64,000 bases of DNA from an uncultured SAR116 cluster alpha proteobacterium. GTDB lineage: Bacteria > Pseudomonadota > Alphaproteobacteria > Puniceispirillales > GCA-002684695. Made by a program: the position numbers and the translations under genes. Positions 4,221-30,172 of this stretch are shown piece after piece. The stretch is taken from positions 5,092 to 69,091 of the forward strand of contig CABYVI010000003.1 of NCBI GenBank assembly GCA_902522415.1. Direction: 5' to 3'. How positions within the stretch are numbered: position 1 is the first letter of the stretch; each line of letters opens with the position of its first letter. The notes beneath the pieces were generated by a model, which was given only the letters and a program-made list of their open reading frames with translations, did no database searches and had not been told where the DNA came from.

Positions 4221-4541
4221 ATGGAAAATTTTATCACACCAGGCTTAGATCCAAAAACTTCTTTTGAAATAAGTTCGAATAAGACTAAAAAATTAAATGC
4301 AGACACTACAAGCTTAAATGAAGCAGCAGAGAGATTTGAGGCTTTATTTTTATCTCAAATGCTCAAATCAGCGAGAGCTGCAAAATTATCAGAAGATATA
4401 ATGGGCAACAATGCAACAGATACTTACTACGCAATGATGGATAATGAATTGGCAGAAAAATTATCAAAGGCAGGTAATTTTGGGATTGCAGAAGCTCTTA
4501 TCAGACAATTTGGTGGAAATGTAGAGGACAAAGATAAGTAA
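4221..4541 (+). CDS. flgJ: FlgJ-like rod-binding protein (rod-binding domain only, no muramidase domain)
   Basis: 106 aa; AAERFEALFLSQMLKSAR rod-binding motif; lies between flgI and flgK; stop overlaps the flgK ATG (TAATG). Confidence 0.7.
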   Translation: MENFITPGLDPKTSFEISSNKTKKLNADTTSLNEAAERFEALFLSQMLKSARAAKLSEDIMGNNATDTYYAMMDNELAEKLSKAGNFGIAEALIRQFGGNVEDKDK

Positions 4542-7500: not shown

Positions 7501-10500
7501 ATCTGATGATATGACCGATCTAGCAAAGAAAATTAATGAGCACTCTGCAAATACTGGAGTGACAGCATTTTTATCAGTTGATAAGAAAAAAGTGGTTCTT
7601 GAGAGTAAAGACGGTGACGATATAATGATGACAAATTTTTCATCATCAAGTCCACCACTTAATTTAAAATCACTAGGAGAAAACTTTGAAACTCTTGGTA
7701 ATGAGGTAAAATTAGATAATACTAACTTTGATGCAGCAAGATTTACTGGCTATGTTAAATTGAATGCTGGAGGATCATTTTCTTTAACAACAAACGCTGG
7801 TTCAAATAACTCAACAGTCTCTAGTACAACTGATATTTTTGAAAATAGCTTTATAGAAAAAAGCATGACACCAACTGGCGAGCAAATGACTCTAAAATTT
7901 GATGCATTTGAGGGTGCTGATGGAAATGGATCTTCAGTTGACGGTTCTATGGCTCTTGCTGCAGGTGGCGAGTATAAATTGACAATTCCTAATACTGGTT
8001 CAGGGACCTCATTCTCATCTACAGTCAAAACTAAAGATTTAGAAAGTATCACATCAAATACTGTCGCTGCAGAAATAGCAAAAAAATTACGCTCTGATAC
8101 ACTCATAGCTTCGGTATCAGGTAAAAGTTCAGTAAATGAATTACCTGAAGCAGGAGACAAGTTAGTTGTAAAATTTGCAGAGCAAAATTATACACTTACA
8201 ATGCTTGATAATGGACGTGATGCAGTGCCTGCAACTGCTACGTTAAGTGTAAGCAACGCAGATACAGTTGCAGCTGCAGGAAACCGAATTCATCTAATTT
8301 TATCAGCCGGCATGGAACCAGAAATTGATTTGGATTACACTGTTCAGGCAGGTCAAACTAATATTTCAAGTATAGTTTCAGGACTTAACACTGCTCTAAA
8401 TACTGCAGGAGCTTCTGATAAATACTCATTTTCATTCAGAGGAACCAATTTAATTTTATCTAGAAAGGATGGAGTTAATTTTCAATCATACAAGGGTGCA
8501 AATCAAACAACAAATATACTATTTTTTGATGGTGTTGATATTAGAACTGGAGCTGGTAGAGAGACTATTAATGGCGCAACAACAAATAAAACGCTAATCA
8601 CAACAGATGGGAAACTTTCTGTTGAGAGAGAAATTGAAATATCTGGTGGTGAAAAGAATAGGCTTAATGCTTATTTTGATGAAAATAAAAAGTTACAAAT
8701 TTTTGCTGGTGGGAGTCTTTCTGGACAGCAAATAATAATTCCTGATGATAACTCTGTTTCAGGTAATAGTAGTGCTGCCACTAGATTTGGAATAGATCGA
8801 GCAATAGGAACATTAACAGGAAATGAGATTGCAGTCCCTGCAACAACTTCGACTACGAATGTTAAAGTAGGTGATATTGATTATACTTTAACCATTAATC
8901 CAAATAATGGTGGTAAAGTAACTGCAGAATTAAAAGATGGAAATAATATTGTTCCAACTAACATATTACTCGATGCAACTGTAAACTGGATGAGCAATAT
9001 TATTACTTCAGATACAACGAGTATTGCATCTTCAGCTGGTGCAGTTATCACTTCTGATAGTGATCACGAATTTAAGGTTGGAGACAAAGTAAAATACTTT
9101 AAAGGAGGCACTGCACTTACTGGGTTAACACATAATACTGAATATACAGTTGCATCCATTGTAAAAAAATCTAGCTCTCAAGCTAATACGGTTGGCCTCA
9201 CGCGAGCTGCTAGTTCCACAATAACAACTGCTAATGCTCACGAGTTTAAGGTTGGAGACTTTGTAAAATACGTAAAAGGCGGGACGAATAACCTTCAAAG
9301 TCTGACTGATGGGGAGGTTTATAAAATAAAAGAGGTTGTTGGCACCAATCAATTTAAACTTCAAACAGCTGGTGGCAGTGACTTCACTTACGGTGGAACT
9401 GGTGGTAGTTCAGCAGATGCATTCATCCGATTTGACGGCTTTTCGTTAAAAAGTGCAGCAGGTGCAACCATTACTTACGGTGGTGGAAACGGCCACGCAG
9501 CTGATCAGTTTGTAAAATCAGAAAATATTAGAACCGCTGATACAACAGGGCAAACGAACAATACATCTGCAACAATAACAGTTGGTGAGGGTCACGGATT
9601 TAAAGTAGGAGATTCTGTGACTTATATTCCAGCGGGAACAAGCGTTCAAGGATTAGGGGCAAATATCAACTATAGAGTAAAAGCTCTTATTGGCTCAACT
9701 GGAATTTCGCTACAGACAACAGCAGGCGCTGATTTTGCTTACTTGGGAACAGATGGAAGTGCAAATGATGTTTTTGTAAAGGCTAACGGAAGAATATCAA
9801 TAAAGACCAATCCATATAGTAATAAGGAATATAAATTTGATCATACTGCTAACGCTGAGGCTCTAGGTATTAAAGTATCGGACTACAGAGTTAATGTTGA
9901 CAATGATAAATTAGTAATTGCATCCACTGAAGGAAAAGTTGTTTCTGCTGATACAACAGGAAGCAACACAAGCGTTAAAAGCTTAATTGGAAGCAATATT
10001 AATATTAAAAATGTTGGCAATGAGGATTTAATAATGATTGTCAATGGCGGTGGCGCAAGAAGTGTCGCAACAAGGTCTGACCCCCCTGCCCCAAATTATG
10101 AAGCAAAACCTTCAAACATTGACATCAAAGTTGCAAACGCTGAGGGTAGTGTTATCGAATTCCTTGATGCAACCACGGGTCATTCAATCGCTACAAGAAC
10201 ATTAGACACTGTAGGTAGAGCTGAAGCTGCTGGTTATAAAGTTGTTGTCAAAGGTAAAGGCCAGCTCGATGACAGTTTTAAAATATCAGACAATGCTGGT
10301 GGAACAGGTGACGCAAGAAACTTAGATGCCATGATAATGCTTCAAACTGAAGATGCAAATGGTCCTAATTCAGGTGGGTTCAGAGAAGTTTTTGACAATA
10401 TTGTCACAGGTGTAGGAGCATCAGTATTATCAGGCGGTCTATCTTTAGAGGCAGCTGAAGCAACAAAAGAAGCGGCAATTGCATCAGAACTAGAATTTTC

Positions 10501-10621
10501 TGGTGTGAGTTTGGACACTGAAGCTGCACAGCTTCTGGAGCAACAACAAGCATTTCAAGCTTCTGCAAGAATTCTATCAACTGCTAAACAACTATTTCAA
10601 ACATTACTAGACGTAGTGTAG
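4541..10621 (+). CDS. flgK: Giant hook-filament junction protein FlgK (HAP1), 2026 aa
   Basis: N-terminus SSLFDIGKSAVQSYRQALAVTGQNIANVNTDGYKRR and C-terminus EAAQLLEQQQAFQASARILSTAKQLFQTLLDV are FlgK-type. The ~1500-aa central region contains flagellin-IN-like motifs and five HGF-x-x-GD modules. Confidence 0.85.
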   Translation: MSSLFDIGKSAVQSYRQALAVTGQNIANVNTDGYKRREADLKEVGASSGSVTSTGNSAGLGVRVENIRRSFDQFLLDRSRSSIANYEKLKSYTDQMKQLEDILLPGDADIGSYIGRFFGALQDIAANPGDLAPRTVALEEGKSLAGAFRNLSFQLEEMQKNGKSQADDTCSAINIVVTQLVDVNERLLSSSLGSSPNSTLDLRDRLLEELSKLTDISVSYNERKDVTVTIGKTGAGPKLLSGKIATKIGVADTGGVIQVLMGAGTSNTPTNQVTGGVLGGVIDSYALIGDTNRDIDNLAVLISETLNDQHKQGITLDGKEGENIFVTSGMTVSPGRANRSSVSAEIVISDIEKLPKGQLTAKFNEVQNRWTLSGSSLENNIFGTSEIKGPGFSLNILGKPTDGDELSTTPLTGAASGMQFMLRRAQDFAAASKTLVSATVSNKGTADITASTGKIKTSDNPPLLNNVFTNSNSPLTATNFLSDGAVSAIPTGSQEADILSFKTQSQMSFQLTEAEIPTTTSLTLEVNSVPHVFDLTYSSVYPKAVASEKWKSCGEIATALNRGIIKNSNSQTLSDLGLFASGSGGSITFASSENDFSGQSTISSGGGTILGISKASALPSNVQVFTREGRHLAGTPLTKEDIAKLVTIDNGFNEGASYRADYINLSGDKAYRGLSLERKTATGDHVITLGSNSNSVTANTSGIGSSIGATITTGTNHGFSTGDTVQYLANSTALTGLTDKAVYKVASINGTNQFTLTKTDGTTLTYGGSNGHANDSFKLFNVNSSGIIPSKTIFPSSAVSAYNASISMFGGESGNIDIPAGSSAGFSANKINTDLANLGVQAEAITRVELSMAEIGSLSYGQTRVNQGSGSPAISLSSTSTNGAATGETEFKVGDIIKYEAVDDHATNGGPLQGLTEFAEYMVASVSSNSITLKNTDGTSLTYGNTGGATGVASHFDSFTLVRRTGQVTLDFESKNQDAINISATISSDDMTDLAKKINEHSANTGVTAFLSVDKKKVVLESKDGDDIMMTNFSSSSPPLNLKSLGENFETLGNEVKLDNTNFDAARFTGYVKLNAGGSFSLTTNAGSNNSTVSSTTDIFENSFIEKSMTPTGEQMTLKFDAFEGADGNGSSVDGSMALAAGGEYKLTIPNTGSGTSFSSTVKTKDLESITSNTVAAEIAKKLRSDTLIASVSGKSSVNELPEAGDKLVVKFAEQNYTLTMLDNGRDAVPATATLSVSNADTVAAAGNRIHLILSAGMEPEIDLDYTVQAGQTNISSIVSGLNTALNTAGASDKYSFSFRGTNLILSRKDGVNFQSYKGANQTTNILFFDGVDIRTGAGRETINGATTNKTLITTDGKLSVEREIEISGGEKNRLNAYFDENKKLQIFAGGSLSGQQIIIPDDNSVSGNSSAATRFGIDRAIGTLTGNEIAVPATTSTTNVKVGDIDYTLTINPNNGGKVTAELKDGNNIVPTNILLDATVNWMSNIITSDTTSIASSAGAVITSDSDHEFKVGDKVKYFKGGTALTGLTHNTEYTVASIVKKSSSQANTVGLTRAASSTITTANAHEFKVGDFVKYVKGGTNNLQSLTDGEVYKIKEVVGTNQFKLQTAGGSDFTYGGTGGSSADAFIRFDGFSLKSAAGATITYGGGNGHAADQFVKSENIRTADTTGQTNNTSATITVGEGHGFKVGDSVTYIPAGTSVQGLGANINYRVKALIGSTGISLQTTAGADFAYLGTDGSANDVFVKANGRISIKTNPYSNKEYKFDHTANAEALGIKVSDYRVNVDNDKLVIASTEGKVVSADTTGSNTSVKSLIGSNINIKNVGNEDLIMIVNGGGARSVATRSDPPAPNYEAKPSNIDIKVANAEGSVIEFLDATTGHSIATRTLDTVGRAEAAGYKVVVKGKGQLDDSFKISDNAGGTGDARNLDAMIMLQTEDANGPNSGGFREVFDNIVTGVGASVLSGGLSLEAAEATKEAAIASELEFSGVSLDTEAAQLLEQQQAFQASARILSTAKQLFQTLLDVV

Positions 10622-10630: not shown

Positions 10631-11917
10631 ATGCAAGTAAGTACAAAATTATTCAATCAACAATCAGTTAATCAGTTCGGAAAACTGACCAGTGAAATTC
10701 AAGATCTTCAGGCAAAGGTTTCAACTGGGAAAAGTATTTTAAAATCTTCAGATGATCCAGTTGCAGCAGTTGAGTTATCTGCAGCCAAAGAGCAAAAAAA
10801 TATTTTGGAAAGGTTCAGAAGGAATATTGACTCTGCTCAAAGAAGATTAGATTTATCCGATGGTTCTATGCAGCAAGCAATCAACGTTATGACAAGAATT
10901 TCAGAATTAGCTATTCAAGCTGCCAACGACACAAATGGCGTTCCTGAGAGAATTGCCATTAGAACTGAAGTAGAGCAACTCGCAAATGTAATGCTTGAAA
11001 TAGCAAATACTAGAGATGCTCAAGGACAAAGTTTATTTGCTGGATACCACACTAATACTCAAGCTTTCATCAAAAACGTTGACGGAACATTCACTTATAA
11101 TGGAGATCGAGGGAAACACACTCTTCAGATTTCTGAATCAATGAACGTTGCAACAAGTATTGATGGAGGCACAGCTTTTGAAACAGTAGACACAGGTTCT
11201 GGCAGAAAAAGTGTTTTTGATATTATTACAAATATTGTAAACACAATTAACAATGCAGATGCTTTATCTAGCCAAGGATCTGCACGTGCGATGGCGTCAA
11301 TAGATTTCAAAGTACCCAGAGATCCTCAAAATTGGTCTTTTGTTTTAACAGGTGGATTAGGATCTTCAACTGTAGACATAACAGTTTCTGATGGAAACTA
11401 CGATGATACAGTTACTAAAATTAATGCGCTTACTTCAGTAACTGGCGTAAAAGCAAGTTTAGACAATGACACAGGCAGAATAACTTTAACGGATAGCCAA
11501 AGTCGAACTATAAAAATTTCTAATATTGAAATTGAGGGAACTGATTTTGCGACTGGAGAGATAAATAGTTATATTGATTTTAATACTCTTGAGGGATCTG
11601 GCGCAGAAGTTGGTTCTTCTCGAAGGTTGACTGATACAAATCAATTAATATCAAGTTCAGTTGAGGATGTAAAAAAGGCAACAGATCATCTGAGTTTACA
11701 AAGATCATTTTTGGGCGCTCAGCTTAATAAAGCTGAACTTCAAAAAGATTCTATTGACCAAAGGATCATGGCAACATCTGAAAGAGTTTCTGATCTTGGA
11801 GACGCAGACTTAGCTGCAATCGTTACTCAAATTCAGAGTTTGTTGATTAACAGAGATGCTGCTCAACAAGCATATGCAAAAATAAGTCAAAACAGCCTGT
11901 TTGATTTCCTAAAATAG
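10631..11917 (+). CDS. flgL: Hook-filament junction protein FlgL (HAP3)
   Basis: 428 aa; flagellin-like N-terminus (SSDDPVAAVE...RISELAIQAANDT) and C-terminal helix; follows flgK. Confidence 0.8.
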   Translation: MQVSTKLFNQQSVNQFGKLTSEIQDLQAKVSTGKSILKSSDDPVAAVELSAAKEQKNILERFRRNIDSAQRRLDLSDGSMQQAINVMTRISELAIQAANDTNGVPERIAIRTEVEQLANVMLEIANTRDAQGQSLFAGYHTNTQAFIKNVDGTFTYNGDRGKHTLQISESMNVATSIDGGTAFETVDTGSGRKSVFDIITNIVNTINNADALSSQGSARAMASIDFKVPRDPQNWSFVLTGGLGSSTVDITVSDGNYDDTVTKINALTSVTGVKASLDNDTGRITLTDSQSRTIKISNIEIEGTDFATGEINSYIDFNTLEGSGAEVGSSRRLTDTNQLISSSVEDVKKATDHLSLQRSFLGAQLNKAELQKDSIDQRIMATSERVSDLGDADLAAIVTQIQSLLINRDAAQQAYAKISQNSLFDFLK

Positions 11918-11934
11918 TAAAATTAAAAAAGTGT

Positions 11935-11960
11935 TAAACATTTTTTTATATTGACGTTTA
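11935..11960 (+). promoter_or_regulatory. Sigma-28-like promoter of flagellin 1 (TAAA-N14-GACGTTTA)
   Basis: TAAACATTTTT...GACGTTTA. The same TAAACATTTTT box and the same 14-nt spacing occur at 14335-14360 before flagellin 2. Resembles TAAA-N15-GCCGATAA. Confidence 0.45.
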
Positions 11961-11967
11961 TAAATAA

Positions 11968-12024
11968 TGAAGTGGTCAGCGCCCTTCAAAAAATTAATAT
12001 TATTTAGTCAATGAAGGGATAGTT
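11968..12024 (+). promoter_or_regulatory. Flagellin 1 leader: hairpin with GGTCAGCG loop plus alternative RBS-sequestering pairing
   Basis: TGAAG-TGGTCAGCGCC-CTTCA hairpin. CCCTTCA can instead pair with the RBS repeat TGAAGGG at 12012-12018. Confidence 0.5.
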
Positions 12025-13527
12025 ATGACTTCCATCAATAGTGACCAAATGTCTGCAATGGTTCTCGCGAGCCTTAATAAGTCTAATGCAACTATGCAAG
12101 AATCTATGCAAAGGTTATCTACAGGTAAAAGAATTAACCATGCAGGTGACGATGCTGCTGGTCTGTCTATCTCAGCAAAACTCAGAGCGCAGGTTGATAG
12201 TTTAAATGCAGCAATTAAAAATTCATCAGATGCATTGGCAATGGTGAGTACGATTGAAGGTGCACTCGTTGAAACTACGACTATACTCCAAAGAATGAGA
12301 CAATTATCTGTTCAGTCTTCCTCTGATACCAACACAGGAAATGACAGAACTTATCTTCAAGACGAAGTAAATCAATTAATTACTGAAATTAATAGAATTT
12401 CTACTAATACAGAATTTAACTCAACAAAACTTTTAGACGGAACTTTTACTGATAAAAATATTCAAATAGGAACAGCATCTAATCAAGTTTTAAGACTAGG
12501 TGTAAGTGCTACAGATTCTACAAAATTAGGAGCATATCAACTAGATAGTGTGGATGAGAGTATTGCTCCAGAAGATACTCATGCATCTGCTAAAACTGTT
12601 TTAAATGCTTTGTATGATGCCACAGCAGATTACGTTGTTAAAGGTACTTTTGGCACGTTTACAGCTTCAGTTGATGCTGGAGCTGATGCAAGAGATGTTG
12701 CTTCATCTTTTAATTTAATAGGAGGGAATACAGGCGTTAACGCGACAGCACTTACTCGTGCGAAAATGACCGTTTCTGCAGCAGCAACATTCAGTTTTAC
12801 ATTTGAGGGTAAAAGTACAACAACTTCTCAAATAACAGCTACTGTAACTTCTGCGACTGACTTGACTGCAATAAAAGATGCTATTAATGCAGTATCGGGT
12901 TCTACAGGTATTTCAGCTGCTTTGACATCTGATAAATCTGGGGTAGAAATTACACAAGCAGAGGGATACGATATTATTATCGGTGATGTATCAACTGGTT
13001 CAACTGACGCTAACTTACTAGTTACGGCCATGGATATGGATGGAAACCTTGATACAGGAAATACGAGAACATTAGATGGTGACGGAACAACTGGTGACTC
13101 AACAGCGATTGTTGGTACAGTTCGCCTTTCAAGTCAAAACGCTTATACGGTTTCGCCAGGTCATGCGAATAATCACTTTTCTGCTGCTACTACAGAATTG
13201 ACTGCATCACATAGTACAATTTCAGCAGTTTCTCTTACAACAAAGGAAGGTGCGACAAAAGCTATGTCAGTTATTGATGGTGCTTTGTTAATGATATCAG
13301 GTATTAGATCAAATATGGGTTCAGCTAACAATAGACTACAATCTACTATCGATAATCTAAGTAATATTGCAGTGAACGCTCAAAAATCACTTTCAACAAT
13401 AGAAGATGCTAACTTTGCTGAAGAAACTGCAAAACTTACAAAAGCACAAATACTTGCGAAAGCAGCTACATCTATGCTTGCTCAAGCGAATAAAGCAAAA
13501 GAAACAATGCTTGCATTGCTGCAATAA
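12025..13527 (+). CDS. fliC: Flagellin (500 aa)
   Basis: RLSTGKRINHAGDDAAGLSIS N-terminus, NRLQSTIDNL...AQANKAKETMLALLQ C-terminus; central flagellin-IN-like motif DLTAIKDAINAVSGSTGISAAL. Confidence 0.95.
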   Translation: MTSINSDQMSAMVLASLNKSNATMQESMQRLSTGKRINHAGDDAAGLSISAKLRAQVDSLNAAIKNSSDALAMVSTIEGALVETTTILQRMRQLSVQSSSDTNTGNDRTYLQDEVNQLITEINRISTNTEFNSTKLLDGTFTDKNIQIGTASNQVLRLGVSATDSTKLGAYQLDSVDESIAPEDTHASAKTVLNALYDATADYVVKGTFGTFTASVDAGADARDVASSFNLIGGNTGVNATALTRAKMTVSAAATFSFTFEGKSTTTSQITATVTSATDLTAIKDAINAVSGSTGISAALTSDKSGVEITQAEGYDIIIGDVSTGSTDANLLVTAMDMDGNLDTGNTRTLDGDGTTGDSTAIVGTVRLSSQNAYTVSPGHANNHFSAATTELTASHSTISAVSLTTKEGATKAMSVIDGALLMISGIRSNMGSANNRLQSTIDNLSNIAVNAQKSLSTIEDANFAEETAKLTKAQILAKAATSMLAQANKAKETMLALLQ

Positions 13528-13557
13528 AAATTTAATTGTTCATATAAGAATTTTTAT

Positions 13558-14100
13558 TTATTTATCAGATGGCTTCAAAGATATAGCATCAAAAATTGTA
13601 AATTCTTCAGTAGCCAGATCTCTTAAAAAATCAATATCTTTCTCGTCGTCAATTTTCCATCCACTGGGTGACGGTTTGCTTAAATCAGATCTCAGTGAAT
13701 ACATATAAGACTTAAACATTTTTATAATGCCTCTTTCTTCGTAATTACGATCTCTTTCTCCATCAAAAATTGATCCAAGAAGCGGTTTGCGATTTCTGAT
13801 TTTACCATTATCAAAGTTAATCGTATTATATATGAAACCGTCTAGGTACTTAGTTGCATCTGAACCCGCCTCTACTTCTGCTAATATCCTAATTATATCT
13901 TCTGCAATTGATGAGATCTCAATTGGATTGACTTCGTCATATTTTTCTAAAAGAGCTTTAGAATATCTTCTTGCCACTAAGTCGATGGGTATATCCTTGA
14001 CAAGAAAATCTCTAGCTGTAAGACCAATACAAGCTGCGTAAACCCATTGAGGGCAATATACAGCCATTTTACCTCCACTAGATAATAAGTTTGATAACAT
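13558..14100 (-). CDS. Hypothetical protein (180 aa) on the opposite strand inside the flagellin array
   Basis: Intact ORF, convergent with flagellin 1; no recognisable motif. Confidence 0.4.
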   Translation of the reverse strand: MLSNLLSSGGKMAVYCPQWVYAACIGLTARDFLVKDIPIDLVARRYSKALLEKYDEVNPIEISSIAEDIIRILAEVEAGSDATKYLDGFIYNTINFDNGKIRNRKPLLGSIFDGERDRNYEERGIIKMFKSYMYSLRSDLSKPSPSGWKIDDEKDIDFLRDLATEEFTIFDAISLKPSDK

Positions 14101-14334
14101 AATAATACACTTCGTTTAAAAATTATAGAACAAAGTAACTATTGCAAATTATATGCCCAAACAGTCACTTTTTCTAAATAAAGCTGAAAAGAAAAAAACA
14201 TTTAACTCTACATTATTATTTAGGCAATTTTAAACAAAATTTTTGTGAAAAAACCCATAATAAACGACACAAAAAAAATTTGTTTAGAAATAAAAAAAAA
14301 TAATAAAATCAATAACTTTTTACTAAAAATAAAC

Positions 14335-14360
14335 TAAACATTTTTACTATATGCCGTTCA
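14335..14360 (+). promoter_or_regulatory. Sigma-28-like promoter of flagellin 2 (TAAA-N14-GCCGTTCA)
   Basis: TAAACATTTTT...GCCGTTCA, same architecture as 11935-11960. Confidence 0.5.
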
Positions 14361-14370
14361 TTTACTTGTA

Positions 14371-14434
14371 CGGAGGTGGTCAGCGAAAACCTTCTCCGCG
14401 TTTAAATTTAATTAACTCGGAAAGGAGACAAAAA
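14371..14434 (+). promoter_or_regulatory. Flagellin 2 leader: hairpin with GGTCAGCGAAAA loop and anti-SD arm
   Basis: CGGAGGT-GGTCAGCGAAAA-CCTTCTCCG. The 3' arm CCTTCTCCG is also complementary to the RBS region CGGAAAGGAG at 14418-14427. Confidence 0.5.
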
Positions 14435-15952
14435 ATGGTCTCAGTGAATACTAATATTGCGTCAGTTGACGCTAGAAACACATTAATGGGTAATAATGTA
14501 ACGATGGAAAAAGCATTCGAAAGACTTTCAAGTGGAAAGAGAATTAACAGCTCAAGTGATGATGCTGCGGGTCTTCAAATTGCAAATAGCCTAACATCTC
14601 AAATTAATGGTCTAAAAATGGCAGCAAAAAATGCTGGTGATGGTATTTCATTAGTAAATACAGTTGATGGAGCTTTAAGCGAAGCAACTGACATTTTACA
14701 AAGAATGCGTGAACTTGCTGTTCAATCTTCTTCAGATACAAATGCTGGACAAGATAGAGTTTTTATCCAAGAAGAAATAAACGCACTTAATACAGAACTT
14801 AATAGAATTTCATCTACCACTCAATTTAATGGGGTGAACGTTCTTGATGGCACATTCGGTGATGTATCACTTCAGGTAGGTTATGATCCAAGCCAAACTG
14901 TTAATATGAGTGTTACTTCTTCAGACTCTGCAACATTAGGTGCATACCAGGATACATCAACAGTCGAAACATTGGCCGTAGTTGATACATATGCATTAGC
15001 AACCGCAGGTTTAACGACAACTATTGCTGACGCAGGTGATTACACAGTTTCAGGTTTTTTTGGTTCTGATACAGCATATATCGCAGCTGAGGCAGGGGCA
15101 AGAGACACAGCTGCAGCTTTCAACTTAATTGCAGGTAATACTGGCATTACAGCAACTGCAGAAACCAGAGCAAGACTTACTGTAAGTGCTGCCGCAACAT
15201 TAACTTTTGACCTTTATGGCAAAAGTTCAACTAAGTCTTCAGTGACAGCAGTTATTTCTGACACATCTGATTTATCAAACTTGAAGGATGCCATTAACGC
15301 AGTCAGTGGATCCACTGGGATTTCCGCAACTCTTACATCTGATAAAGCAGGCGTCAATATAGTTAATCCAGAGGGTTATACGATATTTTTTGCTGATGTG
15401 ACAGCTGCTGGCGGTACTGATGCAGATCTACAGGTTGCAAATTTAACTGTCGACGCTGCTGGTGCTGAAACAACAGCTAACCAAGTTGCAATGAAAGGTG
15501 ATGCAGCTACTGATGATAGTACATATGTATTAGGTCAAGTTACATTGTCTTCAGATAAAGCATTTGCTTTAAGTTCTGGAAATGCTGCAAACCATTTTGC
15601 AACAGATACTTCAGTTCAAACTAGTGCGTTGAGCCAACTAGGCGATATTAACCTTAAAAATATCCATGGTGCTCAAAAAGCTTTAGCGATAATTGATAAA
15701 GCCATTAATATGATCGATACAACACGTTCAACAATGGGTGCTTTAAATAATCGTCTTGAAAGTACTATTAACAATCTGAATAATATTCAGGTAAAAACGG
15801 AAGCGTCTCTTTCCAGAGTAATGGATGCTGATTATGCAGAAGAGACAACTTCCTTATCTAAATCTCAAGTCTTAACTCAGGCAGCTACTGCTATGCTAGC
15901 GCAAGCAAACCAAGCTCCTCAAGGAGTATTAAGATTACTTCAGGCAGGATAA
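14435..15952 (+). CDS. fliC: Flagellin (505 aa; true start MVSVNTN, not the ORF-track ATG at 14351)
   Basis: AAAGGAGA RBS 7 nt before ATG 14435; RLSSGKRINSSSDDAAGLQIA ... AQANQAPQGVLRLLQ. Confidence 0.93.
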   Translation: MVSVNTNIASVDARNTLMGNNVTMEKAFERLSSGKRINSSSDDAAGLQIANSLTSQINGLKMAAKNAGDGISLVNTVDGALSEATDILQRMRELAVQSSSDTNAGQDRVFIQEEINALNTELNRISSTTQFNGVNVLDGTFGDVSLQVGYDPSQTVNMSVTSSDSATLGAYQDTSTVETLAVVDTYALATAGLTTTIADAGDYTVSGFFGSDTAYIAAEAGARDTAAAFNLIAGNTGITATAETRARLTVSAAATLTFDLYGKSSTKSSVTAVISDTSDLSNLKDAINAVSGSTGISATLTSDKAGVNIVNPEGYTIFFADVTAAGGTDADLQVANLTVDAAGAETTANQVAMKGDAATDDSTYVLGQVTLSSDKAFALSSGNAANHFATDTSVQTSALSQLGDINLKNIHGAQKALAIIDKAINMIDTTRSTMGALNNRLESTINNLNNIQVKTEASLSRVMDADYAEETTSLSKSQVLTQAATAMLAQANQAPQGVLRLLQAG

Positions 15953-16004
15953 AGGCCGCCATTGGATTTGAGAAACTAATGGTAGTTTAGTCTACCTACT
16001 ACGG

Positions 16005-16048
16005 AGCCCCAATTTAGAAATGACCGTCTAAGTTGGGGCTAAAAAAAA
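16005..16048 (+). other. 14-bp hairpin (loop AATGACCG) followed by an A8 run, in the flagellin 2/3 intergenic region
   Basis: AGCCCCAATTTAGA-AATGACCG-TCTAAGTTGGGGCT, one G.U pair; no U-run, so not a canonical terminator. Confidence 0.5.
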
Positions 16049-16084
16049 CTCAAGATGAAAGTCTTGAACAACAAGGAGATAAAT

Positions 16085-17587
16085 ATGACCTCAATAAATA
16101 GTGACTTCATGTCGCAATTGGCTTTAAGAAGCCTCGGACAATCGTCCAATACAATGACCCAAGCAATGGAGCGTTTATCAACAGGAAAAAGAATTAATTC
16201 TGCTGCTGATGATGCTGCTGGACTTGGTATTGCTACTAAGCTAAGAGCACAAGTAAATAGTTTAGAGGCTGCTGGAAGGAATGCTTCTGACGCTTTAGCA
16301 CTTATCGGTACAATTGATGGTGCATTAGAAGAGTCAGGTGAAATTCTTCAAAGAATGCGTGAATTGGCAGTTCAATCTGCATCAGATACAAATACTGGTA
16401 CAGATAGAACTTTCATTCAAGATGAAATAAATCAACTCTCTCAAGAGTTAAACAGAATTTCTACAGCAACTGAGTTTAACAATGTGAAATTGCTTGACGG
16501 TACATACACTGATAAAGCAATTCAAATTGGTACAGGTGCAAACCAAGTATTCAGATTGGGAGTTTCTGCGACAGATGCTTCAACACTAGGTGCGTATCAA
16601 TTATCTTCAACAACAGAATCTATGGATCCAGCTGCTGAAGATACTCACGCATCTGCAATTACAGCATTTGCAGCATTATTTCATGCAGACGCAGATTATA
16701 CAGTTAAGGGTAGCTTTGGAACTGCAACTGCTTCTGTAGCTGCTGGTGCTGATGCTCGTGATGTGGCTAGAACATTCAATTTGCTCTCAGGTACAACAGG
16801 TATTAATGCAACTGTCACAACCAAAGCACAGCTTAAAGTTACTGCTGCCGAGACTTTTAGTTTTACACTTCAGGGTAAAAGTTCAGATAAATCTACAGTT
16901 AATGCAACTATAACTAGTATAAGTGATTTGACAGCTTTGAAAGACGCTGTAAATGCTGTTTCAGGACAAACTGGAATTGTTGCTTCATTAACTGAAGACT
17001 TATCAGGAGTTAATCTTACACAAGAAGAAGGTTACAATATTGTTGTAGGTGACGCGACTGCAGCTTCTGGAGCGATGACAGTCCAAGAAATGAAATCAGA
17101 TGGAACTGTAACAGGTTCAGCAAGAACATTAGACGCAGATGCAACAGCTGCAGACTCTACAGCAGTTGTAGGGCAAGTCACTTTGTCTAGCCATAAGGCC
17201 TTCACTGTAACTTCTGGAAATGCTGCTAACCATTTTGCTACTGATACAGCCGCACAAAACTCAAGTTTATCTACAGTAGGCAGCCTTAGCCTTAAAACTC
17301 AAGCTGGTGCAACATCTGCTATTGCAGTTCTTGACGGAGCAATGGCTCAAATTTCTGAAATCCGAGCAGAAATGGGTGCAGCTGAAAACAGACTAGAGTC
17401 TACAGTTGATAACATCAGTAACGTTGCTGTAAATGTTCAAAGATCTCTATCTTCAGTTGAAGATGCGAATTTTGCTGCTGAGACATCCCAGTTAACTAAG
17501 TCTCAGATACTTCAGCAAGCAGCTACTTCAATGCTTGCACAAGCAAATAAAGCAAAGCAAACAATGCTTGTACTACTTCAAGGTTAA
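16085..17587 (+). CDS. fliC: Flagellin (500 aa; start MTSINSD)
   Basis: AAGGAGA RBS before ATG 16085; close paralogue of flagellin 1 throughout, including the central domain. Confidence 0.93.
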   Translation: MTSINSDFMSQLALRSLGQSSNTMTQAMERLSTGKRINSAADDAAGLGIATKLRAQVNSLEAAGRNASDALALIGTIDGALEESGEILQRMRELAVQSASDTNTGTDRTFIQDEINQLSQELNRISTATEFNNVKLLDGTYTDKAIQIGTGANQVFRLGVSATDASTLGAYQLSSTTESMDPAAEDTHASAITAFAALFHADADYTVKGSFGTATASVAAGADARDVARTFNLLSGTTGINATVTTKAQLKVTAAETFSFTLQGKSSDKSTVNATITSISDLTALKDAVNAVSGQTGIVASLTEDLSGVNLTQEEGYNIVVGDATAASGAMTVQEMKSDGTVTGSARTLDADATAADSTAVVGQVTLSSHKAFTVTSGNAANHFATDTAAQNSSLSTVGSLSLKTQAGATSAIAVLDGAMAQISEIRAEMGAAENRLESTVDNISNVAVNVQRSLSSVEDANFAAETSQLTKSQILQQAATSMLAQANKAKQTMLVLLQG

Positions 17588-17607
17588 TAATTTCAACTTT
17601 GTTTTTA

Positions 17608-17639
17608 GGGGAAGGGTTCCGCCCTTTCCCTTTTTTTTT
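17608..17639 (+). terminator. Intrinsic terminator after flagellin 3
   Basis: GGGGAAGGG-TTCCG-CCCTTTCCC followed by T9. Confidence 0.8.
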
Positions 17640-17658
17640 AAAATAATTATCTAAATTT

Positions 17659-17674
17659 TGGCATGGTATTTGCT
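17659..17674 (+). promoter_or_regulatory. Sigma-54 promoter of the 802-aa flagellin
   Basis: TGGCAT-GGTAT-TTGCT, 40 nt upstream of ATG 17714. Confidence 0.7.
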
Positions 17675-17713
17675 CATTGGACGTTGACCTCAAAATAAAA
17701 TAAAGGTGCAACA

Positions 17714-20122
17714 ATGAGTATTTTAACAAATTTAGCGGCTTTAAAATCGCTGTATCACATAAATCAGAATGAAGGTGAATTCTCTACTTCAGTAGAAAGA
17801 GTGTCTTCTGGTAAAAGAGTAAATAACGCAGGCGATGATGCTGCAGGCGCATCAATCATCAATAGAATGACATCTCAGGTACAGGGTATGAGCGTTGCAA
17901 TAAGAAATGCTGGAGATGCTATTTCTATGGCTCAAGTAGCTGAAGGCGCACTCGATGAAACAACAGAAATTTTACACAGACTGAGAGAAATAGCTGTTCA
18001 GTCTGCTAATGGAACTTACAGCGGCGCGAATAGAGTTGCACTAAACGCCGAAGTTGTTGCATTAAAAACAGAGTTATTAAGAATCGCTGAATCTACAAAA
18101 TTTAATGATGTAAAATTATTAAATGGGCAATTTCAAGATACTACATTTGCTATTGGTTATGATGAAAGTCCCGGTCATACACACTCATTAAGTATTGAGT
18201 CTGTAAAGCCAGATGACCTTGGTATGTGGACAATTACAACCGAACAGGAAAATACTGCCACTCTTAAAACAAGTGGAATGGGAAATTATGGAGAAGCTGC
18301 AAATATAGACACTGCAGCTGATCATTTATTTGAAACAGGTGATATTATTACTTATGAACAGGGACCAGCTGCTACAAGTATTCCAGTTCCAGGTCTAGTA
18401 GACGGGAAAAGTTATAAAGTGACAGTTGTTGACTCTGATTCATTTACTCTTACACATCTTGATGGATCAAAGGTTAAATATGGCGCAATCTCAAATTTTG
18501 GCACACCATCAAATGCTAAATTTCATTTACAAAGTATCTCTAATGCACCAACAGTAGGCTTGTCCAAAGGTTCTTACGCAGCCACTGGGGGAACTGATCA
18601 ATCAGCACCAGCATCAGAGGTTTTAAAAACAGAAGATGTTATGGTCCACGGACATGTTGGTTCATCTGAAGTACAGTTAAGAACTGGAATGACAGCTCTT
18701 GAAATTGCTAATGCAGTATCAAATATGGATTCACTTACCGGTGTTCGTGCTTCAGCAGTAACAAATGCTCGAATAACAGTATCACCAAGCGATAATACTG
18801 ATGATAAGCATGTGATTGCATTTGATTTGCAGGGTATGAATACAACTACACCAGTAAAAATTTCAGCAACCATAGGATTTGGTACAGGTGACGAAGTTCA
18901 TTCAGCAGACCTCTCTGATCTAAGAGATAAAATTAATGGTTTCACAGGCACAACAGGAATTTATGCAAAACTTTCATCAGACAAAAGCTATATTGATATA
19001 AAATCACCAGATGGATATGATGTTGTAATTGACAATGTGGATATGCCAACTGACACCGGCACAACGTTAACCCAAGCACTTGTTAACGCGAGTGGAGCAA
19101 ATACGAGTGATACAATTACCTCAGCATTAGCTCATGGATTTCAAGTAGGTGACATGATTAAGCTAACGGATGTCCATGGTGAAACAGGACTTGTTGGAAT
19201 AGATATGGAAACAACCTATTTTGTCAAAACTGCTCCAACATCTACAACCTTTACTTTAGCAACAGGTTCGCCAGATGGAACAACTGTTGATATTACAACA
19301 ACCAACAACGGTCATTTAGAATTTACTAAATTAGAAAAAACACTTAACCTTCAGACACTTGACAGAGACCTTAATGTAAAAGGTGGCAAAGTAAAGTTAA
19401 TGGATAAAGACATTGAATTACAAGGCTCTGGAGTTGGTGCTGTTATGACATCAGTAGCGTCAAGTGCATCAAATGCAAATATTACCTGCAGCAATGACCA
19501 TAGGTTGCAAGTTGGAGATGTTGTAAAATATACTGTAGGAAGTGTAGTTATTGCTGGATTGACAGATGGTGAATTCTACAAAGTTAAGGCTACATCATCT
19601 GATACAGTTTTTACATTAGAGAATTTAGATGGAACCGATCCTACTTATGGTGGCTCTGGAACTGGTGGCACATTTACTAAAGTAGTATCAAATGAAAATT
19701 CATTGCGACTAACAGGTGAAGTTCAATTTGAATCTGCTTATACATTTACTGTTGTTCCAGCAGTTCAGGACTCTTTATTCAGAGCAGCACCACCTGCAGC
19801 AAACTTAAATAAAGTTTCAGATCTTGATGTTTTAACAGTTGAAAAGTCACATAAATTTCTTACAGCTCTTGATGGAGCTATTAAAAGAATTGACGCAGAA
19901 CGTGGTGACCTTGGTGCGACAATGAATAGAATGCAACATACAATTGATAATTTATCAAATGTAATTGTTGGGACTAAATCAGCACGTGGCAGAATTGAAG
20001 ATGCAGACATGGCTGCAGAAACTGCTAATCTAGCAAAAAATCAAATTCTCCAGCAAGCAGCAACCGCAATGCTTGGTCAAGCAAACCAATCAATGCAAAC
20101 AATTCTTACACTTCTAAGATAA
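17714..20122 (+). CDS. fliC: Large flagellin (802 aa) with three HGF-x-x-GD-type modules in the variable region
   Basis: RVSSGKRVNNAGDDAAGASII N-terminus, DLGATMNRMQHTIDNL...GQANQSMQTILTLLR C-terminus; flagellin-IN-like motifs; modules at about 18300-18532, 19108-19330 and 19465-19686. Confidence 0.9.
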   Translation: MSILTNLAALKSLYHINQNEGEFSTSVERVSSGKRVNNAGDDAAGASIINRMTSQVQGMSVAIRNAGDAISMAQVAEGALDETTEILHRLREIAVQSANGTYSGANRVALNAEVVALKTELLRIAESTKFNDVKLLNGQFQDTTFAIGYDESPGHTHSLSIESVKPDDLGMWTITTEQENTATLKTSGMGNYGEAANIDTAADHLFETGDIITYEQGPAATSIPVPGLVDGKSYKVTVVDSDSFTLTHLDGSKVKYGAISNFGTPSNAKFHLQSISNAPTVGLSKGSYAATGGTDQSAPASEVLKTEDVMVHGHVGSSEVQLRTGMTALEIANAVSNMDSLTGVRASAVTNARITVSPSDNTDDKHVIAFDLQGMNTTTPVKISATIGFGTGDEVHSADLSDLRDKINGFTGTTGIYAKLSSDKSYIDIKSPDGYDVVIDNVDMPTDTGTTLTQALVNASGANTSDTITSALAHGFQVGDMIKLTDVHGETGLVGIDMETTYFVKTAPTSTTFTLATGSPDGTTVDITTTNNGHLEFTKLEKTLNLQTLDRDLNVKGGKVKLMDKDIELQGSGVGAVMTSVASSASNANITCSNDHRLQVGDVVKYTVGSVVIAGLTDGEFYKVKATSSDTVFTLENLDGTDPTYGGSGTGGTFTKVVSNENSLRLTGEVQFESAYTFTVVPAVQDSLFRAAPPAANLNKVSDLDVLTVEKSHKFLTALDGAIKRIDAERGDLGATMNRMQHTIDNLSNVIVGTKSARGRIEDADMAAETANLAKNQILQQAATAMLGQANQSMQTILTLLR

Positions 20123-28367: not shown

Positions 28368-28424
28368 AAAAAATATTAAAAATTCTTAAAAGTTTTATAC
28401 AAATCTCCGTTACTATATATGAGA

Positions 28425-28440
28425 CTATTTCGCTGACCTC
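28425..28440 (+). other. 16-nt sequence exactly complementary to the loop of sRNA copy 2, displayed in the hairpin GACTAT/ATAGTC
   Basis: CTATTTCGCTGACCTC is the reverse complement of GAGGTCAGCGAAATAG at 30448-30463. Confidence 0.8.
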
Positions 28441-28442
28441 AT

Positions 28443-28478
28443 AGTCCCTCCATATATTAATGGAGGGACTTTCACTTT
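28443..28478 (+). terminator. Probable intrinsic terminator of the 27732 transcript
   Basis: AGTCCCTCCA-TATATTAA-TGGAGGGACT followed by the T-rich TTCACTTT. Confidence 0.5.
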
Positions 28479-28494
28479 ATATTGTAATATGATT

Positions 28495-28510
28495 AGGCAT
28501 AAATATTGCA
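28495..28510 (+). promoter_or_regulatory. Sigma-54-like promoter upstream of the TPR gene at 28544
   Basis: AGGCAT-AAATA-TTGCA. Confidence 0.55.
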
Positions 28511-30163: not shown

Positions 30164-30172
30164 TTTGTTGTT

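Follow-up and report, generated by a model that had tools for sequence, protein, structure and literature searches.

A loop motif shared by flagellin mRNA leaders and sigma-54 sRNAs in a SAR116 flagellar gene cluster, and its possible role in an RNA competition circuit

Flagellin leaders in the SAR116 flagellar cluster

SAR116 is an abundant, largely uncultured marine clade, for which our literature search returned no description of regulatory RNAs. The window analysed here, a 64,000-nt stretch from an uncultured SAR116 alphaproteobacterium (assembly GCA_902522415.1, contig CABYVI010000003.1), contains a flagellar cluster of the two-activator sigma-54 and sigma-28 type. Two of its flagellin genes, fla1 and fla2, are preceded by leaders with the following features:

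11935-12027, + strand: predicted fla1 promoter and leader (TAAA at 11935-11938; GACGTTTA at 11953-11960)
11968-11988, + strand: fla1 hairpin UGAAG-UGGUCAGCGCC-CUUCA, with the loop motif at 11974-11981
12012-12018, + strand: fla1 Shine-Dalgarno (SD) sequence UGAAGGG, followed by ATG at 12025
14335-14360, + strand: fla2 sigma-28-type promoter, predicted from its match to the consensus (TAAA at 14335-14338; -10-like GCCGTTCA at 14353-14360)
14371-14398, + strand: 5'-terminal hairpin of the fla2 mRNA (from sequence, fold and nine orthologues)
14371-14379, + strand: 5' arm of the fla2 hairpin, CGGAGGUGG, CGGAG(GUGG)
14378-14385, + strand: fla2 loop motif GGUCAGCG, within the 12-mer GGTCAGCGAAAA (14378-14389)
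14390-14398, + strand: 3' anti-SD arm of the fla2 hairpin, CCTTCTCCG (RNA CCUUCUCCG), read from the sequence
14418-14437, + strand: fla2 ribosome-binding region, CGGAAAGGAG at 14418-14427 (the CGGAAAGGAGAC region), and start codon ATG at 14435-14437

The original prediction had drawn the fla2 leader as a sigma-28-like promoter followed by a hairpin and a ribosome-binding site, and our reading of 14335-14437 agrees with that drawing. The fla1 and fla2 promoters of the window share the pattern (C/T)TAA(A/C)-N-CGT(T/A), in keeping with the sigma-28 type assigned to them, and in 15 fla1 and fla2 promoters of relatives (C/T)TAA(A/C) lies about 17-20 nt upstream of CGT(T/A). Genome-wide counts with a loose sigma-28 regular expression were uninformative (16 matches versus 12.6 expected), and the promoter argument is therefore based on alignment and conservation.

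For comparison of the leaders we used 9 fla2 and 6 fla1 sequences from relatives. An exact-protein look-up with the flagellin 2 of the window returned no record, and a scan of genome contigs with the same protein found a single close relative, the SAG AG-899-J15 (99% identical, labelled SAR116). The other matches of that scan were distant high-GC proteobacteria, in which GGTCWGCG occurs at background level and which were of no use for the leader comparison.

A family of sigma-54 sRNAs adjoining fliS

Three copies of a small RNA gene lie in tandem further downstream:

30173-30277, + strand: sRNA copy 1 with its sigma-54 promoter (TGGCAT-N5-TTGC at 30173-30187; RNA 30199-30277; 85.9 bits)
30414-30522, + strand: sRNA copy 2 with its sigma-54 promoter (RNA 30441-30522; 98 bits)
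30537-30647, + strand: sRNA copy 3 with its sigma-54 promoter (RNA 30565-30647; 92.6 bits; loop variant GGUCUGCG)

As originally proposed, these sRNAs stand behind sigma-54 promoters, each copy being preceded by TGGCA(C/T)-N5-TTGC. The family comprises 31 distinct sequences from about 25 loci, where one to three tandem copies adjoin fliS. In the consensus structure, the 5' hairpin has 8 bp and a loop of 16-17 nt, and a single-stranded linker leads from it to a terminator. A covariance model of the sRNA (R1) detected no copies in loci whose FliS is less than about 55% identical, and the family therefore appears to be confined to one low-GC SAR116 subclade. The linker contains an invariant segment, AAUCUCCGAUGG, for which duplex ranking gave no clear or conserved target. 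Rfam produced no match in the whole window at gathering thresholds, and E-value scans of 28300-30700 and 11900-17750 gave weak matches only, none of them over the sRNAs, the leaders or the complementary RNA described below.

The loop motif is shared, conserved and presented in hairpin loops

The 12-mer GGTCAGCGAAAA of the fla2 loop is identical to positions 30208-30219 of sRNA copy 1, as had been claimed. Within the window, 0.03 occurrences of the 11-mer GGTCAGCGAAA would be expected and 4 are present: one in the fla2 leader, one each in two of the three sRNA copies, and one between genes on the other strand. For the exact 8-mer GGTCAGCG the count is 5 (0.15 expected), all of the sites being intergenic: the leaders of fla1 (11974) and fla2 (14378), the minus strand at 28431, and sRNAs 1 and 2. 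In sRNA 3 it is replaced by GGTCTGCG.

Both sigma-28 flagellin mRNAs, fla1 and fla2, are predicted to begin with a hairpin that carries the core GGUCAGCG in its loop. This core is invariant in all nine orthologous fla2 leaders and in the six paralogous fla1 leaders, at flagellin identities down to about 56%. Absence of the motif from orthologous leaders was one of the outcomes that the original prediction would have taken as a refutation; the motif was present in all of those examined. The 'AAAA' part of the 12-nt identity differs between orthologues, so that the fixed part is GGUCAGCG only. GGUCAGC(G/A) is thus displayed in the loop of a 5'-terminal hairpin in the fla1 mRNA, the fla2 mRNA and the sigma-54 sRNAs, and, judging by the spacing from the -12 GC of the sRNAs or the -10 of fla1, fla2 and the complementary RNA, each motif is at most a few nucleotides away from the predicted 5' end. 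The likeness between the leader and sRNA loops is real and not due to chance.

The sRNAs had been suggested to be mimics of the leader on two grounds, of which one holds. The leaders carry the recognition sequence of the sRNA in an accessible, conserved loop (nine fla2 and six fla1 sequences), as expected of target mimics. The second ground, the hexamer TCTCCG, does recur in the 3' arm of fla2 and in the linker of each sRNA copy, but its 8 occurrences in the window do not exceed expectation (5.7), and this part of the resemblance is therefore indistinguishable from chance. Since it is also missing from the fla1 leader, TCTCCG as a meaningful shared arm was ruled out.

Structure of the leaders

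The fla2 leader folds better than its shuffles (-20 kcal/mol, z = -2.1). The hairpin drawn originally can form in two overlapping registers, and the minimum-energy stem, GGAGGU/ACCUUC, represents one of them. The CGGAG/CUCCG stem, like GGUCAGCG, is essentially invariant in the nine orthologues, the exception being one (L124) with CGGAA; stem cells are paired in 96.8% of cases, versus 51-65% when the partner is slid. No covariation was found across these orthologues, because the stem never varies, and the fla2 structure therefore draws no support from covariation. In the fla1 leader (z = -3.15; none of 200 shuffles as good), the stem shows a compensated change, from GAAG/CUUC to GGAG/CUCC. Here, alignment column 22, in the 3' arm, covaries both with column 6 in the 5' arm and with column 53 in the SD sequence; the score was reached by 3 of 500 shuffles and reflects one evolutionary event in 6 sequences.

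In both leaders the 3' arm is complementary to the SD sequence of the same mRNA, and an occupied or opened 5' hairpin would thus be expected to shift the leader between forms with a free and a sequestered ribosome-binding site. The pairing of the fla2 3' arm with the ribosome-binding site, put forward originally, can be drawn in two registers, UCCG:CGGA and UCUCC:GGAGA. The complementarity to the SD sequence is borne out, and UCUCC:GGAGA is the only register that all relatives share. Each of the nine fla2 orthologues keeps GGAGAC unchanged, and in the minimum-energy fold the GAGAC of the ribosome-binding site pairs with codons 2-3 (GUCUC).

These properties could be explained entirely in cis, the hairpin acting as a 5' stabiliser combined with a self-contained anti-SD/SD switch, and the likeness to the sRNAs reflecting common descent, as would follow if the sRNAs had, for example, arisen by duplication of a flagellin leader, without any cross-talk today. 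The position of the hairpin at the predicted 5' end, the complementarity of the 3' arm to the SD sequence in both genes, with its one covarying position in fla1, and the common order of parts in the sRNA and the fla2 leader (5' arm, motif, UCUCCG) all fit such an explanation. A stabiliser or switch, however, depends on its stem and does not require a particular 8-nt loop sequence, whereas in both leaders it is the loop core that is most strongly conserved, with variation in the neighbouring loop positions and the spacer. We consider this explanation distinctly unlikely.

A predicted sigma-28 RNA complementary to the sRNA loop

Another small RNA gene is a component missed by the original prediction:

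28387-28413, + strand: sigma-28-type promoter (TAAA at 28387-28390; 15-nt spacer; TCCGTTAC at 28406-28413)
28421-28480, + strand: predicted RNA of about 60 nt, hereafter the anti-sRNA (5' single-stranded CUAUUUCGCUGACCUC at 28425-28440; hairpin at 28443-28470; U-rich tail)

The 5' stretch of this RNA is the reverse complement of the sRNA loop (..UUU(C/U)GCUGACC..), and a terminator follows directly. Besides the window copy, 16 other distinct sequences were collected from relatives, and in 10 of 12 distinct loci TAA and CGT(T/A) precede the gene at the spacing of the flagellin promoters. In clade 2, a clean U-run comes after the hairpin on the same strand, which fixes the orientation; in the clade of the window itself, the tail is only moderately U-rich. 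We also considered that 28431 might be a fourth sRNA copy on the minus strand. This was rejected, since that strand has no conserved promoter and the + strand has both the conserved sigma-28-type promoter and the clade-2 terminator with its U-run. With a promoter and a terminator of their own, the sRNAs and the anti-sRNA are likely to be independent transcription units.

Within a locus, the complementarity between sRNA and anti-sRNA extends over 13-20 nt, as against 8-12 nt between clades; in clade 2 it comprises 14 Watson-Crick pairs, or 16 with G·U. The two partners change together: GCG in the sRNA facing CGC in the anti-sRNA becomes GCA facing UGC, a second compensated substitution replaces A-U by U-A (UAG/CUA to UUG/UAA), and the A/U runs of the two RNAs are usually of equal length. 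This covariation in trans supports base-pairing between the sRNA and the anti-sRNA, for which binding energies of -17.3, -21.6 and -12.7 kcal/mol are predicted with sRNAs 1, 2 and 3, respectively. Gene conversion between short inverted copies is a process from which sRNA/anti-sRNA covariation could also partly stem.

It had been proposed that a regulator recognising the loop is titrated by the sRNAs. Nothing indicates a protein in this role: given a sigma-28-type RNA gene that carries the reverse complement of the loop (28425-28440) and covaries with it, the recognising factor is most probably itself an RNA, and the titration could work either way.

Predicted pairing of the anti-sRNA with the flagellin leaders

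Among 50 5' regions of the window, those of fla2 and fla1 are the top two predicted partners of the anti-sRNA, at -17.1 kcal/mol (z = -8.1 versus shuffled seeds) and -12.1 kcal/mol (z = -2.9), respectively, whereas predicted binding to fla3 and fla4 was no better than to shuffles. The match between leader and anti-sRNA is 8-11 nt long in the window and consists of 7 Watson-Crick pairs and one G·U in clade 2. Two clade-2 contigs possess every component, and in these the sRNAs have GCA and the anti-sRNA UGC, while fla1 and fla2 still have GCG. Co-evolution of the leaders with the anti-sRNA was accordingly not observed, the clade-2 pairing being kept only through G·U. The clade-2 sequences are thus compatible with pairing but are no evidence for it, and they suggest that something other than pairing with the anti-sRNA may fix the leader motif. 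From the predicted duplexes we infer that leader and anti-sRNA can pair. A helix of 8-11 bp within a hairpin loop of 10-12 nt is sterically constrained, which counts against such pairing.

One factor that could fix the motif is an RNA-binding protein that recognises the GGUCAGC leader loop and controls translation or decay, with the sRNAs as decoys, in the manner of CsrB for CsrA, and the anti-sRNA masking them. Such a protein would account for the invariance of GGUCAGCG in leaders even where the sRNA and the anti-sRNA have drifted to GCA/UGC, and for the presentation of the motif in a loop in every case; there is also a precedent in Campylobacter jejuni, where the flaA mRNA is repressed by CsrA and in turn titrates it (PMC4894983). 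We nevertheless regard this reading as unlikely. It offers no candidate protein and leaves unaccounted for the 13-20-nt complement of the sRNA loop that covariation has preserved. Nor do the loops, (A)GAGGUCAGC(G/A)AAA.. and (G)UGGUCAGCG.., contain the GGA of a Csr-type decoy, and they are therefore not CsrA sites; each sRNA, moreover, has a single motif hairpin. A Pfam scan of the 56 window ORFs of at least 100 aa (CsrA itself measures about 70 aa) yielded no CsrA, FliW, FlbT, FlaF or other RNA-binding family, the flagellar cluster ORFs giving no FlbT or FlaF match, and three conserved unknowns (orf180, orf126 and orf211) matched nothing informative in Pfam or NCBIfam. Since the loop lacks GGA and the scanned ORFs include no such gene, we set aside CsrA, FlbT or another protein as the partner.

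A DNA-binding regulator could likewise hold the motif constant if GGTCAGCG, just downstream of several flagellar promoters, were its operator. The motif does lie at about +5 to +20 of six promoters, in both orientations. It is, however, always located in the loop of an RNA hairpin whose stem shows compensatory changes; the match of sRNA to anti-sRNA spans 13-20 covarying nucleotides, of which the leaders share only 8; and the leaders remained unchanged when the sRNA and the anti-sRNA changed. An operator is thus highly improbable.

Possible partners at fla4 and in the fla2-fla3 spacer

Two further elements carry sequences complementary to the motif region:

16006-16039, + strand: long hairpin in the spacer between fla2 and fla3, with (U)GACC kept in its loop (16021-16025)
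17659-17693, + strand: sigma-54 promoter of the 802-aa flagellin 4 and predicted mRNA 5' end (GACCUCAA at 17686-17693)

GACCUCAA, invariant in 6 relatives, is complementary to GAGGUC of the sRNA loop, and the fla4 5' end is the best predicted partner of that loop among the 50 5' regions (-16.3). The match extends to 10 bp in the window, where the extension is not conserved; because only 6 nt of the complementarity are, membership of fla4 in the proposed circuit is tentative. In the spacer hairpin the stems covary strongly (14 of 25 pairs compensated), and all 7 sequences have the same loop GACC; over 5-6 nt this loop is complementary to (G)UGGUC(A) of the fla1 and fla2 loops. That the hairpin belongs to the circuit is speculative.

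Alternatively, kissing interactions of the GGUC loops of fla1 and fla2 with the spacer GACC and with GACCUCAA of fla4 might themselves be what the motif serves, tying the two ends of the fla2 mRNA together or coordinating the paralogues. Such contacts would agree with an invariant GACC in the loop of a strongly covarying hairpin, an invariant GACCUCAA at the fla4 5' end, the first place of fla4 among the predicted partners of the sRNA loop, and a complementary match of 6 nt to (G)UGGUC(A), seen by inspection in both clades. Only 4-6 nt are involved, however, and the retention of six nucleotides in both clades, once GACC is given, has a chance of a few per cent by a rough estimate; the 10-bp match between the sRNA loop and fla4 lacks conservation, and the anti-sRNA binds fla3 and fla4 no better than shuffles. 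We hold kissing to be very unlikely as the explanation of the motif.

A possible RNA competition circuit

The DNA itself shows the conserved motif, the hairpins, the types of promoter and the covariation between sRNA and anti-sRNA. Our preferred reading, to which we give roughly an even chance (about 0.5), is that the fla1 and fla2 leaders, the sigma-54 sRNAs and the sigma-28 anti-sRNA make up an RNA competition circuit by which flagellin synthesis is coupled to flagellar assembly. The anti-sRNA would base-pair with the sRNA loops and also with the flagellin leader loops; being able to pair with both, it would be the object of competition between leaders and sRNAs, a form of target mimicry. 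Through the state of the 5' hairpin, the translation or stability of the late flagellin mRNAs might then depend on how much sRNA the sigma-54 tier produces relative to the anti-sRNA and flagellin mRNAs of the sigma-28 tier. The transcript ends, both 5' and 3', the effect on translation and its sign are, like the leader pairing, deduced rather than observed.

A more elaborate version, which we find possible but doubtful, is a three-tier competition that times the switch between flagellin types. At the hook/basal-body stage, the sigma-54 sRNAs would hold the sigma-28 anti-sRNA in check and, through the GAGGUC in their loop, might also target the 5' end of the fla4 mRNA, another sigma-54 product. 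Once sigma-28 became active, the anti-sRNA and the very abundant fla1 and fla2 mRNAs would appear together; leaders, sRNAs and anti-sRNA would compete via one shared loop, and late-flagellin translation would follow the sigma-54:sigma-28 ratio. The flagellin mRNAs would in that event be regulators as well as targets.

Comparison with known systems

RNA control of the flagellar hierarchy is known from few models only (E. coli and Campylobacter). In C. jejuni, the RpoN-dependent FlmE (CJnc230) and the FliA-dependent FlmR (CJnc170) have opposing roles in the balance of flagellar gene expression; FlmE acts on the flgM and Cj1387c mRNAs, and mutual pairing of FlmE and FlmR was not reported (PMC11187230). 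The SAR116 system resembles this pair in having one sRNA of the sigma-54 tier and one of the sigma-28 tier. It differs in that its two RNAs are directly complementary, that the sigma-54 sRNA is free-standing and tandemly repeated whereas FlmE is processed from flgE, and that flagellin leaders copy the sRNA loop. No sequence or Rfam relationship of FlmE or FlmR to the sRNA or the anti-sRNA was found.

The Vibrio Qrr sRNAs (sigma-54/LuxO-dependent and multicopy) are likewise near-identical genes with a sigma-54 promoter and a terminator each. Unlike these, the RNAs described here have no Rfam Qrr match, consist of a 5' hairpin, a linker and a terminator, and belong to a flagellar setting and not to quorum sensing.

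The leaders of fla1 and fla2 also resemble flagellin leaders controlled by CsrA-FliW (hag in Bacillus subtilis, flaA in C. jejuni), in which a hairpin is combined with a site located at the Shine-Dalgarno sequence. In C. jejuni, the regulator acts on the flaA mRNA and is itself titrated by it (PMC4894983). There, the regulator is a protein that binds GGA motifs, whereas here the loop is devoid of GGA and a complementary RNA is present.

Enterobacteria provide several sponges and decoys: the chbBC spacer traps ChiX, SroC sponges GcvB, and 3'ETS-leuZ is a further example. As in these systems, the same or a complementary seed would titrate a base-pairing RNA, and an mRNA segment may be the decoy. 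Unlike them (they are Hfq-based and not tied to the sigma factors of one organelle), the shared element here is a 5' hairpin loop and not a linear seed, and all partners lie in one gene cluster. UTR-derived sRNAs under the flagellar sigma factor likewise modulate flagellin levels and flagellar number, by acting on lrhA, fliC and ribosomal protein mRNAs; to our knowledge, neither a partner from an earlier tier nor leader mimicry, both of which are proposed here, has been described for them. If true, the circuit would be the first case to combine, in one gene cluster, complementarity between sRNAs of the sigma-54 and sigma-28 tiers with flagellin mRNAs that copy the recognition loop.

Genomic context of the flagellin leaders

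One polar-flagellum cluster fills the first 48 kb of the window, and its flagellin 2 is ~99% identical to that on a contig of the single-cell genome "uncultured SAR116 cluster alpha proteobacterium AG-899-J15". The cluster starts with flgE-like, flgF, flgG, flgH, flgI, flgJ, a 2026-aa FlgK and FlgL, followed by flagellins 1-4 (fla1-fla4). Downstream of fla4 lie, in order, TPR, glycosyltransferase and sulfotransferase genes (variable in number among the compared loci), fliD (minus strand), orf211, a TPR protein gene, three small non-coding units (the sRNAs), orf126, fliS, two sigma-54 activator genes and fliF through flhB.

Flagellin region and orf126
4541-10621: FlgK
12025-13527: flagellin 1, after FlgL
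13558-14100, minus: orf180, conserved gene between fla1 and fla2
14435-15952: flagellin 2
about 16086-17587: flagellin 3
17714-20122: flagellin 4, 802 aa
30659-31039, minus: orf126

TGGCA(C/T)-N5-TTGC motifs precede fla4, fliD and the three small units, and TAAA-N14/15-G(C/A)CGTT motifs precede fla1 and fla2. A further sigma-54-type motif, TTGGCATTAAATTTGCA (30920-30936, plus strand), lies ~165 nt upstream of fliS within the N-terminal coding part of the opposed orf126; TGGCA(C/T)-N5-TTGCA occupies the equivalent place in nearly all 80 FliS loci, distant high-GC relatives included, and judging from sequence the motif is probably a fliS promoter overlapping the divergent gene. The product of orf180 (177-180 aa) is kept between fla1 and fla2 in all syntenic loci, has no match in Pfam or NCBIfam, and is preceded by a sigma-28-type promoter, CTAAACAAATTTTTTTTGTGTCGTTTAT (14260-14290, minus strand); orf180 is an uncharacterised late flagellar gene. 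Two flagellar proteins are of unusual size, namely FlgK, whose length is conserved in relatives (about 2027-2030 aa), and the sigma-54-dependent 802-aa flagellin.

The spacer between fla2 and fla3 (15953-16085) is without a recognisable promoter and contains three hairpins with strong covariation (14/25 pairs compensated in 7 sequences), none of which is followed by a U-run (0/3), while AGGCCGCCAUUGG, which follows immediately on the fla2 stop codon, hardly varies (a single substitution, in 1/7 sequences). Together these features suggest that fla2 and fla3 are co-transcribed, with the spacer acting as a structured processing or stability element. The host is labelled an alphaproteobacterium (SAR116); the sigma-54/sigma-28 two-activator organisation of the cluster is typical of Vibrio and Pseudomonas, and the nearest flagellin relatives found outside the clade are gamma- and betaproteobacterial, which hints at horizontal acquisition of the flagellar system.

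A loop motif shared by flagellin leaders and sRNAs

All elements originally predicted in the fla2 leader (14335-14437) were found at the coordinates given, including the 12-nt loop identity: GGTCAGCGAAAA at 14378-14389 recurs at 30208-30219 in sRNA copy 1. Five exact copies of the 8-mer GGTCAGCG are present in the 64 kb (0.15 expected), and the 11-mer GGTCAGCGAAA is found four times (0.03 expected); all sites are intergenic. That the motif is a DNA operator carries the least weight among the alternatives considered. The original prediction is extended by the fla1 leader, which has the same 8-mer (11974-11981) in the loop of a UGAAG/CUUCA hairpin, as well as by a complementary RNA and the loci of relatives. 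The resemblance of the TCTCCG arms is real but not significant (8 observed vs 5.7 expected). In sRNA copy 3 (30574-30581), GGUCUGCG stands in place of GGUCAGCG, a change found in no other copy among 31 distinct sRNA sequences; the resulting mismatch with the complementary RNA makes for weaker predicted binding, at -12.7 instead of -21.6 kcal/mol.

Conservation of the leaders

Syntenic flagellin loci were collected from marine metagenomes and single-cell genomes by protein searches and contig look-ups. The motif proved invariant in the orthologous leaders of both genes. In nine distinct fla2 leaders, whose flagellins are 56-99% identical, ACGGAG, GGUCAGCG, CUCCG and AAGGAGAC do not change, the sole exception being one locus (L124) with CGGAA; the remaining loop positions and the spacer vary. 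Stem pairing holds in 96.8% of cells, compared with 51-65% when the partner is slid, and since the stem never varies there is no covariation among the nine leaders. The A-run after GGUCAGCG is AAAA in the window (14378-14392) and AAAAA in the single-cell genome (L001:9943-9960), despite 99% protein identity, so that the 3' part of the loop is length-variable.

Among six fla1 leaders GUGGUCAGCGCCCU is invariant, and the stem shows a change of GAAG/CUUC into GGAG/CUCC. The 3'-arm position involved covaries also with the Shine-Dalgarno (SD) region (GAAGGG to GAGAGGG), in a single evolutionary event; such double covariation would be expected of an anti-SD arm able to pair with either of two partners. 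Both hairpins start 7-10 nt past a -10-like element, which places them at the predicted mRNA 5' ends. Second in weight among the alternatives is that the hairpin is a cis-only stabiliser or switch, its similarity to the sRNAs being inherited.

The sRNA family and a predicted complementary RNA

A metagenome scan anchored on FliS yielded 80 loci, about 25 of which carry 1-3 tandem sRNA units upstream of fliS (FliS at least 64% identical in all). In each unit a sigma-54 promoter is followed by an 8-bp hairpin, GUUCCUAG/CUAGGAAC, which begins at the predicted +1 and whose loop is 16-17 nt long; next come a single-stranded linker, (A)AAUCUCCGAU, that does not vary, and finally a terminator hairpin. 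In one copy the stem differs by a compensated change (GUUCUUAG/CUAAGAAC). The loop reads AGAGGUCAGCGAAA(A)UAG in clade 1, which includes the window, and AGAGGUCAGCAAAAUUG in clade 2. No Rfam family matches the sRNAs, and a covariance model built from them gave no hit in SAR116 loci that are more distant.

Relatives retain the fifth 8-mer site (28431, minus strand), which invariably adjoins the sRNAs and lies on the other strand from their motif. It belongs to a predicted RNA, hereafter the anti-sRNA.

Predicted anti-sRNA gene in the window
28387-28413, plus: promoter
about 28421-28480, plus (the sRNA strand): predicted anti-sRNA

The promoter aligns column for column with those of fla1, fla2 and orf180, with (C/T)TAA(A/C) ~17-20 nt upstream of CGT(T/A). 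Beyond it, after about 8-11 nt, comes CUAUUU(U)CGCUGACCUC (clade 1) or ACGUAAUUUUGCUGACCU (clade 2), and directly 3' of this complementary stretch a GC-rich hairpin; the window's anti-sRNA is predicted to fold into a free 5' stretch and a terminator hairpin. In clade 2 a clean U-run follows the hairpin on the plus strand (e.g. AAAACCCCUUAUA...UAUAAGGGGUUUUUAUUUAUUU), which settles the orientation. The surroundings vary: in the window lineage orf211, with weak methyltransferase-like hits, is inserted between fliD and the sRNAs (27732-30163, compared with L036, L047 and L116), as is, in some members, a 539-aa TPR gene; in clade 2 the sRNA array directly adjoins the fliD promoter and the anti-sRNA is placed between sRNA copies.

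In its 5' stretch the anti-sRNA carries the reverse complement of the sRNA loop, and compensating changes preserve the match: GCG/CGC (sRNA/anti-sRNA) in clade 1 becomes GCA/UGC in clade 2, and UAG/CUA becomes UUG/UAA. The sRNA A-run usually equals the anti-sRNA U-run in length (5/5 in L050; 4/4 in L036, L037 and L063; 3/3 in window copy 2). Complementarity within loci spans 13-20 nt in clade 1 and 14 Watson-Crick pairs (16 with G·U) in clade 2, compared with only 8-12 nt for between-clade combinations. Predicted binding to sRNAs 1, 2 and 3 amounts to -17.3, -21.6 and -12.7 kcal/mol (shuffled seeds, ~-2.5 kcal/mol).

Predicted pairing with the leaders and competing explanations

Between the window's anti-sRNA and the flagellin loops the match is 11 nt long for fla2 and 8 nt for fla1, and of 50 5' regions compared these two leaders rank highest as its predicted partners (cofolding at -17.1 kcal/mol, z = -8.1, for fla2 and -12.1 kcal/mol, z = -2.9, for its paralogue fla1). 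What best fits the shared motif, the complementary RNA and the anti-SD arms is a competition circuit: the same loop, displayed both by sigma-54 sRNAs and by sigma-28 flagellin leaders, would be offered to a sigma-28 anti-sRNA. In the fla2 cofold prediction, binding of the anti-sRNA unfolds the 5' hairpin, and the CCUUCUCCG arm thus released pairs with CGGAAAGGAG. Translation would thereby be repressed, and the sRNAs, as sponges of the anti-sRNA, would lift the repression; this sign of the effect is tentative.

Two clade-2 contigs carry all components (ERZ908533 k127_669707, with L122 and L117; ERZ28774334 k127_29509741, with L124 and L119). In both, the leaders keep GGUCAGCG, the sRNAs and anti-sRNA have shifted to GCA/UGC, and a single G·U supplements seven Watson-Crick pairs between leader and anti-sRNA. 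Pairing with the leaders is thus permitted everywhere, with no covariation in its support. Recognition of the loop by a protein, the weightiest alternative, draws its main argument from this leader core, unshifted despite the GCA/UGC change, which is also the main weakness of the circuit model; some further constraint may keep the core strictly invariant. Third in weight is a kissing interaction between the loops and GACC elements located in the fla2-fla3 spacer and at the fla4 5' end. In several relatives (L033:13648-13655, L034:13059-13066, L122:12897-12904, L124:14291-14298) the fla3 coding sequence contains, close to its 3' end and on the plus strand, the 8-mer CGCUGACC, which is complementary to the leader loop; the window's own fla3 lacks it, and it probably reflects the coding of a conserved C-terminal peptide rather than a target site.

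Computational support for the competition circuit is good as regards the sRNA/anti-sRNA pair; for the flagellin leaders the circuit is plausible but unproven. The sRNAs had originally been proposed as leader mimics titrating an RNA-binding regulator, a reading that holds in part: the mimicry is real, and the recogniser, given the complementary anti-sRNA, is probably itself an RNA.

Comparison with known systems

Sponge and decoy RNAs are established in enterobacteria. We found no paper connecting SAR116, small RNAs and flagella in the literature searched. In E. coli there are UTR-derived sRNAs under sigma-28 control (PMC10578931), and the C. jejuni flaA mRNA both responds to CsrA and titrates it (PMC4894983). 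The nearest analogue of the proposed circuit is the C. jejuni FlmE/FlmR pair, one RpoN-dependent and one FliA-dependent sRNA with opposing effects, which act via mRNA targets and for which mutual pairing is not reported (PMC11187230). The present system brings these themes together in an arrangement and a lineage that are both new.
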